Shown piece after piece: positions 7,317 through 11,008 of a DNA stretch of 11,008 bases. Under the pieces are notes generated by a model. It worked only from the letters and a program-made list of their open reading frames with translations, had not been told where the DNA came from and did not search any database. The stretch lies in the IMG/VR virus record IMGVR_UViG_2534681647_000023. One strand, given 5' to 3'. Positions within the stretch are counted from its first letter, which is position 1; every line of letters begins with the position of its first letter. The DNA comes from a virus (taxonomy: Duplodnaviria > Heunggongvirae > Uroviricota > Caudoviricetes). Both the position numbers and the translations under genes were made by a program.

Positions 7317-7885
7317 CACTGCTCCGCAATGATTTTGATGGTTGTGGCAGTAAACGCCGCGCCATTCGACTGAATGGTTAACGTGCTGCCATTTGTGGCA
7401 AGAAAGCCGTCTTTATCCACGCTGAAGAACGTAGCTAACAGGATGTTGTCGGTTGTTGTTGCCGAGTTGCGACTGCTTACTAGCGTGTCAGGAACAGAAC
7501 CGGAGAATGTTAGCTGCATTGACCTGTTGGCGGTTCCGCTGGGCCACGTCCCGACAATCGACAGCTTGAAGAACAAGGTTTTGTTCTCGTTGAACACAAC
7601 CATCTTGTTGTTAACGGTGTCGAAGAATGGTGCCAACGTCCCGGATGACGGCGTAAGCGTTTTCAGCAGGCTAACAAGGTTGGTCGGCGCTGTCGGGATG
7701 GTTACTGATACGCCAGAGTAAACAACCTCTGACTTCTTGCGCGTAGTGGCATACTCCAGAGCATTAATGCGCGTTTCATGGTCTGAAACCTGCGATTCCA
7801 GCGACTGAACTCTGGTATCAAGCGATGCAATATCGCTTTCATTCAAGGCAATCAGTGGGTTTACGTCATGGAGTGGGCTCAACAC
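7316..7885 (-). CDS. Tail-needle-like protein (P22 gp26-like coiled coil plus distinct C-terminal domain), probably 5'-truncated
   Basis: Heptad-like N-terminal segment with DHETRINALE resembling the gp26 coiled-coil motif (DHESRI...); Thr/Ser-rich beta-like C-terminus; begins with GTG exactly where the opposite-strand ORF starts. Confidence 0.5.
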   Translation of the reverse strand: MLSPLHDVNPLIALNESDIASLDTRVQSLESQVSDHETRINALEYATTRKKSEVVYSGVSVTIPTAPTNLVSLLKTLTPSSGTLAPFFDTVNNKMVVFNENKTLFFKLSIVGTWPSGTANRSMQLTFSGSVPDTLVSSRNSATTTDNILLATFFSVDKDGFLATNGSTLTIQSNGAAFTATTIKIIAEQ

Positions 7886-8563
7886 CAGTCAGAGCCGCAT
7901 GTACACGCAATAATCATGGTGAACGAAAGAAGCATTAATGGGCAAGCTGGCAAAATTGTCAGCAAATGGGTAACACTGGCAAACAATGCAATCCCATCAA
8001 ATGTTCCTCCCCAGTGGGATCTAGATTTGAAAGGTCAGCAATATTCAGAGCCTACAAAGTGTATAGGTAAACAGATTGATTACATGGCAAAGCCCGAAAC
8101 TAAGTTAAATGACTTTAATAGAGAGGCGAGCAAGAGCCTATATGATTGGTCAGATGCCAACGTTTGGGGTTATTCGAATGGCTGGGCGCGGCATGAGATA
8201 AAAAAAGAAACACTTTCTATCACTGGCTTTCATGCTGTAAGACGCATACTAAAAGCCGTTCAGGCATCAAGGAAAGACAACTACAAAGCTAAGCGACAGA
8301 TACAGCGTACATTGAAACGACAAGACATAAATCGATCACCAATCACCCCGTTCCAAGCACCGTTAATTAGCAAACACGATTGGGATTTATCAGTGATAGC
8401 GGTCACCAAAGAGGCAGAGACAGAGCGCAGGGAATTACTATCCTCACAGATAATAAACTCGAACAAAGTACAAACCCACCCACTGTTAAGGATGTTAAGA
8501 AGAGCACGAGTGAGAGCATCCAGAGCCAAAAGAGAAAGCGGAGGTTATGACCATTACTACTAG
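7868..8563 (+). CDS. YagK/YfjJ-like (inovirus Gp2-type) HUH-motif protein, likely a 5'-truncated remnant with a very basic C-terminus
   Basis: PHVHAIIMVNER resembles the PHYHLVLFLNKD motif of YagK/YfjJ proteins, but only about 10 residues precede it versus about 100 in full-length members (from memory); start overlaps the tail-needle-like gene on the other strand. Confidence 0.45.
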   Translation: MEWAQHQSEPHVHAIIMVNERSINGQAGKIVSKWVTLANNAIPSNVPPQWDLDLKGQQYSEPTKCIGKQIDYMAKPETKLNDFNREASKSLYDWSDANVWGYSNGWARHEIKKETLSITGFHAVRRILKAVQASRKDNYKAKRQIQRTLKRQDINRSPITPFQAPLISKHDWDLSVIAVTKEAETERRELLSSQIINSNKVQTHPLLRMLRRARVRASRAKRESGGYDHYY

Positions 8564-8565
8564 TA

Positions 8566-8775
8566 GTGACAGATCGTGACAAGGCGGTGCAAAAAACGAC
8601 CAATAATAAGAGAGATATGCCTGCCAAACCGCCAAAAGCGCGGAGCGCGGCAAACGCCGCGAGAGGCGCAAGAAGGCGAACCTATCCATTGAAACGGTCA
8701 GAAGCGCATCGCGCTCGACGACCGAAGTCCCCACTAACACCGTTAACGAAAGATCAAAGTCTTAGAAAAAAATGA
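8566..8775 (+). CDS. Low-complexity, highly basic small ORF (possible frameshifted continuation or non-coding)
   Basis: Begins with GTG right after the TAG TAG TGA stop run; internal ATG at 8617; about 35% K/R/P/A; no family recognised. Confidence 0.2.
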   Translation: MTDRDKAVQKTTNNKRDMPAKPPKARSAANAARGARRRTYPLKRSEAHRARRPKSPLTPLTKDQSLRKK

Positions 8776-8857
8776 CGTTTCTTTGATGGACTTCCATCCG
8801 TAAAAATCAAATTTTGAGAAAAAGTACTTATAGAAATTAATCGCTCTATAAGGATAA

Positions 8858-8968
8858 GTTGACGTTAGTTTAAAGTGATAAAACATTAAAGAAAAAACGT
8901 AAAATCAAATACATAAAATAAGTCACCAAGGGATCATTTTCAGAAAACAACGTCAACGTAACGTCAAC
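8858..8968. repeat. AACGTCAAC motif set: direct repeat pair at 8949-8957 and 8960-8968, inverted copy at 8858-8866, separated by phased A-tracts
   Basis: Directly visible; candidate protein-binding sites (operator or iteron-like) in the AT-rich spacer. Confidence 0.4.
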
Positions 8969-9142
8969 TCTGTAAGAACTTTTTTGGTCACTTTTTGGGT
9001 TGAATGTACGTAAAAATCCCCAGCAGTGAAATTTGAGCGCGTAAGCACAATTCTGAGGGGCTTTTTGTCTGTAGGTTAGGCAGTGTAACTAACAATACAA
9101 GAAGTTAGCTCTGACTAACTATTTAATTAACTTTTCAATCTA

Positions 9143-9172
9143 ATTGCGTTAGATATTATACCCTAACGCAAT
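9143..9172. repeat. Perfect 10-bp inverted repeat attgcgttag / ctaacgcaat with 10-nt spacer, within a cluster of alternating CTAAC/GTTAG pentamers (9087-9167)
   Basis: Directly visible; about 60 bp 3' of the stop of the 470-aa gene; followed on the plus strand by atattttta. Confidence 0.5.
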
Positions 9173-9232
9173 ATTTTTAATTCAATAATGTCTGTAAATT
9201 GTTATTACTTATAATTATACATTTAACTATAT

Positions 9233-10645
9233 CTACATTGGCTGCTTCCAATTACTACTTACGTAACGGAATCTCGGATCCTCTGTTTTTGGCTCGGTAT
9301 AATAAGAATCATCAATAGTAAAGTTCGACGCTAATTTATCCCGAAGCCCACCTAAACGTTCAATGCTTGTTAGTTCGTTAGTAACATCCTTGAAAACGGT
9401 AGAAAATGCTTTATGTTGTTTAGACTTCATAAATTCAGGAGTGCTCAGTGCAAACTCTTTATCAGGCAAACCTGGAATACCCACGAGTCCTGTCAATGAA
9501 TTTATACATTTTATCAAAAAACTGCCTTGAATACCTTGATTTGATGGAACACCGTAGCTTCGTTTAATATCTCCAGATATTTTATCTAAATCACTTAGTA
9601 ATTTTGTTACTTTTTTATTTCCTGCACTTATCCCCGATTCATCGTAGGTCACATGAATCTCTCGGATTACATCTCGACACGTACGAAAATGATCATGTGT
9701 TCTAAGCTCTAAAGCTGAATTGATAACTTGAGAGACATTTCCTGTTTCGTTTGCTAGCCATGCAGAAAATATTGGTAAATCTAATGAAATAGTAGATGTG
9801 CGTCCATGATCTACAATTTCAGATCTTGCAGTACTGATTTTATCAGACAACGATTGCACCAACCTTGCAGTATAATCATGACCAAAAGCACCTGTTTTTT
9901 TCATCCAATGCAATTGATATGCATGCCTTATTGGATGAATAAATGAGTCTGCTTTAAAATGCTTAGCAATGACGCTGTAATAAATAGATTTATATGCCAA
10001 CCAATTTAGCGATGCGATAAACATTTCAAGTGAACGAGTCATACCTCCTTTACCGCGAGTAGATTTTTCCCTTTCTAGTTCAAATTCACGCTCAGTATAT
10101 TCATGTCCAGATGAACTCACTAGCTTCACATCGGTTGACCAGTACCCTTTCGTATCAGAAGCATCTGATAATTCATTAAAAATCGATGCACTTAGTTCAC
10201 TATATTTCGCATATTCAGGAGTACCGGGCTGACCAAGCATTTTCATTGTTAAGTAATACACGCTAGACCGAAGATCCCATGTGCAAATCATATTCAGCTT
10301 AAGCATCTCTACAAGTTGCCTAAAATCATCGTCAACAAACTCCCCACCTCTAATTTCGGAAGTAATTTGCCGAGATTCAACTTGTGCTAACTGATCAAGT
10401 TCACTGAGTTGAAAATCACTTTCAGATACAAATTTAATAAAGTCAAATTTAGCAATGCGTTTATCTCTATATTCTTTTTTATAATTATCTACACAGATCA
10501 GGGTATCGTAAAAAAGTATCGCTTGAATAAGATTTTCAAAAGCGACTAAATCTCCGTTAATAGTATCTGGATTCTTAACAAGAATATCACCCAGTGTTCT
10601 TTCGACTGCTGTTAACGAAGCATTATCAATCAACGCATAAGACAT
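9233..10645 (-). CDS. Orphan 470-aa protein of unknown family in a low-GC island; candidate accessory/defence cargo gene
   Basis: Long uninterrupted ORF; strong SD GGAGG 8 nt upstream of ATG 10645; stop TAG at 9233-9235; visibly AT-rich (not computed) in a roughly 50% GC background; flanked by 457 bp and 185 bp of AT-rich non-coding DNA; no recognisable P-loop, RT, HExxH or PD-(D/E)xK motif by eye. Confidence 0.8.
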   Translation of the reverse strand: MSYALIDNASLTAVERTLGDILVKNPDTINGDLVAFENLIQAILFYDTLICVDNYKKEYRDKRIAKFDFIKFVSESDFQLSELDQLAQVESRQITSEIRGGEFVDDDFRQLVEMLKLNMICTWDLRSSVYYLTMKMLGQPGTPEYAKYSELSASIFNELSDASDTKGYWSTDVKLVSSSGHEYTEREFELEREKSTRGKGGMTRSLEMFIASLNWLAYKSIYYSVIAKHFKADSFIHPIRHAYQLHWMKKTGAFGHDYTARLVQSLSDKISTARSEIVDHGRTSTISLDLPIFSAWLANETGNVSQVINSALELRTHDHFRTCRDVIREIHVTYDESGISAGNKKVTKLLSDLDKISGDIKRSYGVPSNQGIQGSFLIKCINSLTGLVGIPGLPDKEFALSTPEFMKSKQHKAFSTVFKDVTNELTSIERLGGLRDKLASNFTIDDSYYTEPKTEDPRFRYVSSNWKQPM

Positions 10646-10659
10646 TAAACTACCTCCAT

Positions 10660-10683
10660 TAGATAATATCTAATAACATTATA
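10660..10683 (-). promoter_or_regulatory. Putative promoter -10 (TATAAT on minus strand, plus coordinates 10678-10683) with overlapping palindrome TAGATAATATCTA (10660-10672) as a candidate operator
   Basis: Perfect TATAAT on the minus strand 33 bp upstream of the ATG; perfect 6-1-6 palindrome between the -10 and the SD. Confidence 0.3.
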
Positions 10684-10790
10684 TTTCAATTAGGTTTAAA
10701 AATTGTGATACTTATGACAGATTTGAGTGACATTTTATCAATCTACTGATTTTGATGGTGAAATTTATTAGAAGGTATGCGTAGTGCTAC

Positions 10791-10823
10791 GGGAGAAATG
10801 AGAAACGCGCCCAGCAATGGCGC
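10791..10823 (-). terminator. Intrinsic terminator candidate downstream of the small minus-strand ORF
   Basis: On the minus strand: GCGCC-attgctg-GGCGC hairpin followed by gtttctcatttctcc; begins 9 nt after the TAA stop of ORF 10832-11008. Confidence 0.4.
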
Positions 10824-10831
10824 ATCCTTTC

Positions 10832-11008
10832 TTAAGCAAGTTGGCTAGTATCTATAGCATCCATCCAATCAGGAGCAATTCCCAAACGTTCCGCGAACTC
10901 TTCATTGGTCACGTCTTCCATTGAGAGACTAGCCAGACAATCGTTAATTTCAGAATAGACGGGGGAAAGTAATAGGTATTCCCGCAACTCTTTCAGGTCT
11001 TTTTCCAT
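10832..11008 (-). CDS. Small acidic ORF (58 aa visible); may extend beyond the window edge
   Basis: Reverse-complement of the window end reads ATG GAA AAA GAC CTG AAA...(MEKDLKELREYLLLSPVYSEINDCLASLSMEDVTNEEFAERLGIAPDWMDAIDTSQLA) then TAA at 10832-10834; not in the ORF track (short, edge). Confidence 0.3.
   Translation of the reverse strand: MEKDLKELREYLLLSPVYSEINDCLASLSMEDVTNEEFAERLGIAPDWMDAIDTSQLA

Follow-up and report, generated by a model that had tools for sequence, protein, structure and literature searches.

A conserved non-coding module behind the rep gene of argW islands in Escherichia coli: a candidate rolling-circle origin, preserved as a relic in O157:H7

Described origins and the argW module

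The double-strand origin of plasmid pMV158 combines a nick locus with 11-bp direct repeats about 80 bp away, and the origins of Staphylococcus aureus pathogenicity islands (SaPIs) and of PICIs (phage-inducible chromosomal islands) are found 3' of rep and have iterons on either side of an AT-rich stretch. Features of both designs occur in a non-coding block of about 510 bp (8564 to ~9070) behind the rep gene of a family of islands integrated at the tRNA gene argW, one copy of which lies in the window analysed here, a stretch of 11,008 nucleotides (IMG/VR virus record IMGVR_UViG_2534681647_000023) that by sequence match is the argW region of E. coli O157:H7, identical in EC4115 and many others. 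This module is very probably a functional cis-acting element of the island family; that it is the Rep-dependent rolling-circle origin of the island, with origin function, Rep binding and nick position all predicted from sequence comparison, we consider somewhat better than an even chance. The O157:H7 copy of the island is a dead remnant, with a truncated rep, integrase and AlpA lost and decay begun, and its module is a fossil.

The module is origin-like because it is a non-coding block placed after an HUH rep gene, is more conserved than that gene, carries repeated sites at fixed positions, a fixed-length AT-rich stretch and hairpins, and belongs to an island whose resolvase has a repeat array of its own. 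A first-pass annotation had described 8776-9232 as a single AT-rich, non-coding, motif-dense spacer; it is indeed AT-rich (30.2% GC), and it is a composite of island backbone (part of the block that starts at 8564) and the 3' flank of a cargo gene. Eighteen distinct versions of the module, together with that of Klebsiella, were aligned. The parts recognized are listed below by window coordinate, L numbers designating individual sequences in the comparison.

8564-8694: GC-rich (53%) non-coding segment right behind the rep stop codon, with frame-breaking indels among relatives
8638-8669: hairpin A, GCGC / CGCGGC-AAAC-GCCGCG / GCGC, helices 97-100% paired
8696-8723: hairpin B, GGTCA..GCGC-ATC-GCGC..GACC, stems conserved, loop variable (ATC, ATT, TCC, CTC)
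8741-8747, plus strand: CRTCAAC site 1, degenerate in O157 (CGTTAAC), CGTCAAC or CATCAAC in L003, L009, L010 and Klebsiella
8753-8764, plus strand: ATCAAAGTCTTA, the only match in the module to ATCAANNNNTTR; first of three RATCAAA repeats (8753, 8806, 8904)
8773-8852: near-invariant core and candidate nick locus, 92-98% identical to L009 and L010, where rep is 48-74% identical
8858-8866, minus strand: site 2, inverted iteron GTTGACGTT, at a constant position in every island of E. coli and E. albertii
8867-8948: A-rich spacer of 82 bp, 24% GC, 41-58% identical between island types, with an embedded conserved AATCAAA (8903-8909)
8949-8968, plus strand: sites 3 and 4, the iteron AACGTCAAC in two direct copies (11-bp period)
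8969-9018: conserved module tail with TAAG, ACTTTTTKGGT twice (8978-9000), TGGGTTGAA and, at 9009-9018, the third CGTAAAAATC; Klebsiella, too, retains the last blocks
9012-9066: AAAAA-stem-TTTTT hairpin (CCCC/GGGG, CAG/CTG) at the backbone edge, a fold of the O157 sequence that is bidirectional-terminator-like
9067-9103: backbone-to-cargo junction, where homology fades (~9075-9103); TAACAATACAAGAAG is common to only some islands, and the first GTTAG/CTAAC pair lies at 9075-9093

Across hairpins A and B together, 97% of cells are paired. Hairpin B is maintained in L018 and L019 through a register shift (GGTCATCGAGC / GCTCGATGACC), and its O157 copy has a 2-nt deletion and one mismatch. The near-invariant core holds TGACGTT (an inverted half-site, 8773-8779), TTTCTTTGATGG, a palindrome at 8785-8798, CGTAAAAATC (8799-8808) and AAAAAGTACTTATAGAAATTAATC; a further CGTAAAAATC, one A shorter, starts at 8898. 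An inverted repeat, CTTATAGA/TCTATAAG (8827-8834 / 8845-8852), goes with AAAAAGTACTTATAGAAATTAATC, and its 3' arm is not conserved, which argues for constraint on sequence rather than structure. Relatives have CATCAAC twice or a mixture at sites 3 and 4, giving the consensus AAC-R-TCAAC. ATCAANNNNTTR is the published core consensus of IHF, and ATCAAAGTCTTA is by this match a putative IHF site; in its Klebsiella version the NNNN positions are altered (ACCC) and ATCAA and TTA are retained. Folded as single-stranded DNA, the module is more stable than shuffled sequences (z = -2.8 and -3.4).

Like the double-strand origins of the pMV158 family, the module is non-coding, has hairpins nearby and lies beside a gene for an HUH Rep with a single catalytic tyrosine motif, and its direct repeats of 11-bp period stand tens of bases from a core that is conserved in its own right and might contain the nick site. 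Unlike that of pMV158, the island Rep belongs to Pfam family PF23343 and not to Rep_2, the pMV158 nick sequence TACTACGAC is absent from the module, there are two direct repeats plus inverted copies instead of three repeats, and the origin would lie downstream rather than upstream of rep, in an integrated chromosomal island rather than a plasmid. The resemblance to SaPIs and PICIs is one of layout: the module is 3' of rep in an island bearing an integrase and AlpA, an accessory or defence slot is nearby, and, about 300 bp past the rep stop codon, an 82-bp stretch of 24% GC is enclosed by the sites at 8858-8866 and 8949-8968. However, unlike the island Rep, a predicted HUH nickase, the initiators of SaPIs and PICIs are of the helicase/primase type and act by melting the AT-rich region, and the argW island lacks packaging and capsid-remodelling genes.

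The intergenic region of the Ff phages (M13/f1/fd, ~508 nt) is likewise a non-coding block of about this length (~510 nt in the island) beside a rolling-circle initiator gene, with hairpins and an AT-rich part, and the gpII nick region of M13 (ACGTTCTTTAATAGTGGACT) has a local look-alike in the module (ACGTTTCTTTGATGGACT). In contrast to this outward likeness, the DNA similarity is not significant (score 18-23, versus 18.8 +/- 2.1 for shuffles), M13 gpII belongs to the Phage_CRI family (PF05144/PF05155) and not to PF23343, and the island has no virion genes; the look-alike, a resemblance to the f1/M13 nick site, was dropped as evidence because the M13 similarity is not significant and gpII is in another Pfam family. 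With an integrase, an excision factor and Rep, the island also resembles the pSAM2-type actinomycete integrative and conjugative elements (AICEs) and the PICMIs (phage-inducible chromosomal minimalist islands), and replication of an excised circle would be expected of it. PICMIs, satellites of Vibrionaceae, are minimal elements with alpA and variable defence cargo that replicate as concatemers (PMC10803314). The argW island differs from AICEs and PICMIs in its Rep family, host range and integration site (argW, Enterobacteriaceae), and its own excision and replication are predicted by analogy.

Conservation across islands

Comparative genomics indicates that the first ~510 bases of the gap behind rep (8564 to ~9075) are 82-91% identical in other E. 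coli, with a match in 543 of 5426 complete genomes (~10%). At the DNA level, the O157 core (8723-8866) is 87-98% identical to that of islands whose rep is only 48-74% identical, and the segment from 8776 to ~9075 is, on the evidence of these alignments, more conserved than the rep coding sequence beside it and subject to strong purifying selection. CRTCAAC sites occupy the same four positions in L002, L003, L004, L009, L010 and Klebsiella, and site 2 is 93-94 bp from site 3 in six islands though the spacer between them is only 41-58% identical; such fixed positions and spacing fit a protein-binding cis-acting region. Thus, the first-pass view of the spacer as a protein-binding control region rather than neutral sequence stands for 8776 to ~9075; the 3' part is cargo flank.

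The Klebsiella islands retain the core blocks at 78% identity. Their cargo has been inserted at hairpin B and separates rep from the core and iterons, which stay together downstream as a unit. In Klebsiella L005 an HNH/nucleotidyltransferase cargo lies within hairpin B, flanked by the 9-bp direct repeat TGAGCTAAC (7191-7199 and 8829-8837). The reverse complement of the last 8 bases of this repeat, GTTAGCTC, is also found at 9104-9111 of the window, which may be coincidental or a remnant of the insertion mechanism.

The repeats named in the first-pass annotation were all found at the positions given: AACGTCAAC directly repeated with an 11-bp period (8949-8957, 8960-8968) and inverted at 8858-8866, the palindrome GATGGA-CT-TCCATC (8785-8798) and a perfect 10-bp inverted repeat (9143-9152 with 9163-9172). 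The cluster of alternating CTAAC/GTTAG pentamers comprises six copies (9075, 9089, 9104, 9115, 9148 and 9163), the first of which was missed by a range that began at 9087. Phasing of the A-tracts is not real, since AA periodicity at 9-12 bp does not exceed that of shuffles (0.39-0.44 of which are at least as high). Alignment of the homologous islands bears out the iterons and the core, but the A-rich spacer diverges and the perfect GATGGA/TCCATC palindrome is confined to O157-type sequences, of which it is a derived state; other islands have GATGGGCTTCCATC, and Klebsiella has no palindrome there.

Motif frequencies are only marginally above the expectation for AT-rich DNA. Dinucleotide shuffling of the window gave some 9-mer three times within 130 bp in 9 of 200 trials; six copies of some pentamer within 100 bp arose in 8 of 1000 trials when the region was shuffled and in 16 of 100 when the whole window was. 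What carries weight is conservation across islands. That the motifs are chance features of AT-rich DNA decaying in a dead remnant, with nothing functional among them, is nevertheless highly improbable. The defective state of the O157 island, the marginal statistics, the unreal A-tract phasing and the lack of sequence diversity within E. coli by which conservation of the CTAAC cluster could be tested would all agree with chance, but chance does not account for a core 87-98% conserved beside a rep of 48-74%, for site positions and spacing fixed across genera, or for a 10-bp inverted repeat shared with Dickeya. It applies only narrowly, in that the O157 copy itself has probably fallen out of use.

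The absence of a credible open reading frame, as first reported, is confirmed by indels, start loss and an in-frame stop among relatives. The longest frame in the region encodes 47 amino acids (aa) on the minus strand (8743-8886). As candidates for small proteins, the minus-strand frame of the core (33-47 aa) was rejected on loss of its start in L018 and L019 and an in-frame stop in Klebsiella, and a 69-aa frame at 8566-8775 on indels of -1, +7 and +2 in relatives; neither has a family match.

The adjoining initiator gene

The gene that ends where the module begins was delimited by blastn against L002 and by translation:

7845-8563, plus strand: 5'-truncated rep, encoding an HUH rolling-circle initiator

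The O157 rep lacks its first ~111 codons, including motif I, and retains the HUH motif (PHVHAII) and the tyrosine motif (IDYMAK). Its full-length relatives (347-350 aa) have motif I (YSFTF), PHVHAII and IDYMAK, and match the Pfam family REP_ORF2-G2P (PF23343, E=7e-7, 29.7-29.9 bits versus a cut-off of 27.8); by motifs and family, Rep is a rolling-circle initiator of the HUH type. The family is tiny: exhaustive search of 1.8 billion representative proteins yielded 28 matches, all of the same Pfam type, and a profile search of a word-indexed protein database added no further relatives. Distant relatives give weak matches to RepSA of pSAM2, and Rep itself a sub-threshold match to the MobA/VirD2 nuclease domain (17.5 bits versus a cut-off of 24.6, E=0.005). 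A Pfam search detected no helicase or primase domain in Rep, a sequence search of PDB gave no match, and a single-sequence AlphaFold model (pLDDT 43.5) was unusable.

RefSeq calls Rep a "replication protein" or "hypothetical protein" of 215 or 285 aa even in intact islands, where the full reading frame is 347-350 aa; the short calls lie at 7916-8563 in the window, 6143-7000 in L002 and 6353-7000 in L003, and the 215-aa start is just 3' of the HUH motif. Island L002 is ~96% identical to L022 and L010 in the genes from the integrase to the 128-aa protein and in the non-coding core, whereas the rep alleles are only ~50% identical at the protein level; the allele swap is sharp and limited to rep and the GC-rich segment behind it. 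In the metagenome copy L028 an insertion of ~1.2 kb (~3141-4343) interrupts rep at the equivalent of L002 6724-6727, and may be an insertion sequence element.

Proposed origin function

If the module is an origin, the intact island would be excised by its own integrase and AlpA, and the HUH Rep would bind the AAC-R-TCAAC sites, namely the direct pair at 8949-8968, which is the proposed Rep "bind" locus, the copies in inverted orientation (8858-8866 and 8773-8779), and one more at 8741. Binding would organize the fixed-length spacer of 24% GC between the sites, Rep would nick one strand within the near-invariant core (8773-8852), and the host replisome would extend from the free 3'-OH. On the displaced strand, the GC-rich hairpins (8638-8669 and 8696-8723) may act as lagging-strand or recognition signals; the resolvase, acting at its own site, would resolve multimers, and the nick site could double as an origin of transfer (oriT). 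An HUH initiator gene adjoins the site, as at rolling-circle double-strand origins (5'-truncated in O157), and iterons of 11-bp period keep their positions among related elements, with Rep as the presumed binder. A plasmid-like circular form is suggested by the resolvase and its repeat array; no terminal overlaps, the sign of contigs of a circular form, were found. Hairpin loops vary while stems are kept, and the invariant blocks TTTCTTTGATGG and ACTTATAGA are candidate nick sites only.

Several observations weigh against a Rep-dependent origin. The module contains no known nick consensus (CTTGAT, TACTAC or the TARTATTAC nonanucleotide) and no DnaA boxes, it has no significant similarity to the M13 intergenic region, motif counts alone are marginal, and compensatory change in hairpins A and B amounts to a single pair (CG to GC). 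The core, moreover, shows no co-variation with Rep: a core 98% identical goes with Rep alleles ~50% identical, nearly identical Reps of the Klebsiella type accompany cores only 78% identical, and E. albertii L004 has a type-A Rep beside type-B iterons. The GC-rich segment and the iteron and spacer type mostly follow the Rep type, L004 being a recombinant, whereas the core is common to Reps ~50% identical. Decoupling of core and Rep, together with the mixture in L004, is a better fit to a site read by a host or helper factor.

The module might accordingly be a cis site read in trans by a helper, either a packaging signal (pac, cos or filamentous-phage-type) or an oriT mimic, by which the island hitch-hikes on a phage or conjugative element; we consider this rather unlikely. 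Besides the decoupled core, it would suit an island without packaging or transfer genes of its own, whose AlpA and minimal content resemble phage satellites such as PICMI (PMC10803314), and a Rep with a weak, below-threshold MobA/VirD2 nuclease match (E=0.005); defence genes have also been reported clustered beside oriT in genomic islands (bioRxiv 10.64898/2026.01.13.699239). However, a similar site would be expected in helpers among the plasmids and phages searched, and blastn of the module against 72,556 plasmids and 50,697 phages found nothing similar, though blastn would miss short mimics; repeats and spacer next to rep are, furthermore, arranged as in an origin. Mimicry of oriT or cos was also sought in the "distant" mode of blastn against plasmids and phages and found no support, the search returning chance matches of ~30 nt or none. 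A look-alike of the lambda cosB R-site, CGTTTCTTT, was set aside as too short to test, blastn against phages having found nothing.

A further proposal, which appears quite unlikely, is that argW islands are minimal rolling-circle satellites, possibly packaged as single-stranded DNA, that consist of integrase, AlpA, a Rep of inovirus/plectrovirus type, a defence slot and a resolvase, the module being the equivalent of a filamentous-phage intergenic region (plus origin, minus origin and packaging or transfer signal) and read partly by a helper. This arrangement would account for a module that exceeds Rep in conservation and is shared by divergent Reps.

The conserved sequence could also act as RNA, being the structured 3' untranslated region of a rep operon or a small RNA that runs from near TTGACG at 8859 to the hairpin at 9012-9066 and regulates rep, cargo or host genes. 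Transcription of rep continues into the module, the rep stop codon is closely followed by hairpins A and B, a -35-like TTGACG and an A5-stem-T5 hairpin are present in O157, and the RNA folds at z = -1.6 and -1.9. An RNA role is unlikely, however. A covariance search against 4227 Rfam families has no match in 8564-9232 at E<=1, a promoter scan flags nothing within the module, and there is almost no covariation; changes at the R position of the iterons are independent from copy to copy and do not compensate. The terminator-like hairpin at 9012-9066 is weakly conserved and restricted to the type-A island lineage, absent from type-B and Klebsiella islands (consensus -2.4 kcal/mol, no compensatory pairs counted), and was not called by a terminator scan. 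A review of O157 island small RNAs has none at this locus (PMC8565820). The first-pass suggestion of a small-RNA locus is thus not borne out.

The cargo flank and the border of the variable slot

The last ~160 bases of the gap occur only in the O157/O55:H7 lineage, always with the same 470-aa cargo gene (317 genomes), and include the following part:

9104-9232, minus strand: 3' flank of the 470-aa cargo gene, with hairpins AGTTAG-N6-CTAACT (9103-9120) and ATTGCGTTAG-N10-CTAACGCAAT (9143-9172)

The flank of a homologue in Dickeya solani shares the 9143-9172 hairpin (TGCGTTAG...C(T/C)(A/G)ACGCA), followed by AAAAGT...AGTCAGAGC; thus, 9104-9232 is part of the cargo gene's own surroundings. The pentamers of the CTAAC/GTTAG cluster make up three hairpins in the 3' untranslated flank of that gene, outside the module. 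Only the third is demonstrably conserved, and none is followed by a T-run, the 9143-9172 stem having no T-run on either strand.

The 470-aa protein is a highly conserved orphan that is widespread in Proteobacteria; it has 233 matches (55-85% identity) in Escherichia, Dickeya, Salmonella, Vibrio, Shewanella and Pseudomonas, and no Pfam, NCBIfam or PADLOC family. Its gene is solitary in every case, in contexts that vary: it occupies the cargo slot of the island, is on its own in Dickeya, neighbours AbiGi in an island of Salmonella and forms an integron cassette in Vibrio vulnificus. It is a candidate single-gene defence system.

These contexts bear on the possibility, also raised by the first-pass annotation, that the region is a recombination site, which would here serve cargo exchange as a res/hix-like site for the serine recombinase or as an integron attC-like site composed of GTTAG/CTAAC (GTTRRRY / RYYYAAC-like). 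The left border of the variable slot falls exactly here, V. vulnificus carries the cargo gene as an integron cassette, Klebsiella cargo is flanked by the 9-bp direct repeat TGAGCTAAC, and GTTAGGC at 9075-9081 is identical to a canonical integron core site. The possibility is nonetheless very unlikely. The recombinase's own motif, GTCTCAATWGGGT, is present in three copies upstream of its gene (L001 16752, 16791 and, inverted, 16861) and in none in the region, and the left and right cargo borders share no repeat. As for attC, the pairs run GTTAG...CTAAC, the wrong order, and are too short and without L'/L'' complementarity; the CTAAC-to-GTTAG intervals are only 20-45 nt (attC, 57-141 bp), with no complementarity between the arms, and the O157 flank is unlike the attC of the homologous V. 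vulnificus cassette.

The argW island and its O157:H7 remnant

An intact island of 8-10 kb is present at argW in E. coli strains 005008 (CP058661) and EC529, and the same type of island was found in E. albertii and Klebsiella pneumoniae. Gene order in the intact islands of all three is integrase, AlpA, small genes, HUH Rep, ~510 bp of non-coding DNA, variable cargo, a 58-aa gene, serine recombinase and attR. Before the module, 005008 and EC529 encode a P4-type integrase, a protein of 246-251 aa, AlpA, two proteins of ~63 aa, one of 128 aa and a "rolling circle replication-associated protein". The island ends are 20-26-nt att repeats of the argW 3' end. The cargo slot holds, according to island, a SIR2-family gene, a two-gene system, AIPR, a DpnII/MboI-like gene, HNH plus nucleotidyltransferase, or the 470-aa orphan of O157, and the metagenome contig L026 has the O157-type cargo within an intact island. 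In the window, 7845-11008 is the right-hand remnant of such an island, in the following setting:

left part of the window: end of the Stx2 prophage with its integrase
3468-3542: tRNA-Arg gene argW (Rfam scan)
after argW in the window layout: intS
5036-7852, minus strand: P22-like remnant (ejection-protein and needle genes)
to 8563, plus strand: open reading frame of the 5'-truncated rep, homologous to intact islands from 7845
8564-9232: unannotated gap of 669 bp
9233-10645, minus strand: 470-aa cargo gene
right of the 470-aa gene, inside the window: 58-aa gene
just past the window end: serine recombinase of 208 aa (Pfam Resolvase)

The O157 island has lost its integrase and AlpA, and its attR has a 1-nt deletion. 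With rep lacking its first ~111 codons and no integrase, the module would be inactive in O157, and the region is probably inert there.

The unannotated 669-bp gap in the genome of a major pathogen is thus explained as a fossil origin module, if the module is an origin, and the tail of a cargo gene. Interest attaches mainly to the island family and its defence slot, and less to the O157 sequence. No description of the family was found in the literature searched; it is present in ~10% of complete E. coli genomes as well as in E. albertii and Klebsiella, and it moves defence-type genes, since the slot between module and resolvase holds SIR2, AIPR, DpnII-like, HNH and orphan genes. The conserved module is a landmark for one border of this defence-gene hotspot and, if it is an origin, would provide a handle for testing replication and spread of the island.

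The left half of the island has been deleted in two lineages independently: in L009 (E. coli CP027593, 5208-6975) rep is fused to a lambdoid prophage, and in O157 (window 7316-7916) to the P22-like remnant. Tandem elements at one argW seem to erode each other. At the right border of the cargo slot (10766-10831), a hairpin ACGCGCC-N7-GGCGCGT followed by a T-rich run on the minus strand looks like the terminator of the 58-aa gene; with it, the variable slot is bracketed by hairpins on both sides. In L001 (EC4115) 16745-16880, ~170-300 bp past the window end, between the 58-aa gene and the start of the serine recombinase gene, GTCTCAAT(T/A)GGGT occurs three times, twice direct and once inverted, and this array looks like a res-type or operator site of the recombinase.

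Two features of the Stx prophage were also noted. CAGTTCA occurs four times in 130 bp (1670-1800) inside its DUF1627 gene and is the densest 7-mer cluster of the window; four copies were also reached in 24 of 200 shuffles. A sub-threshold Rfam match to HgcC at 1792-1914 on the plus strand (26.7 bits versus a gathering score of 50, E=0.007) consists mainly of one strong hairpin (CCACGTCCTTTAGGGCGTGG) and is probably the terminator after the DUF1627 gene rather than an HgcC RNA.

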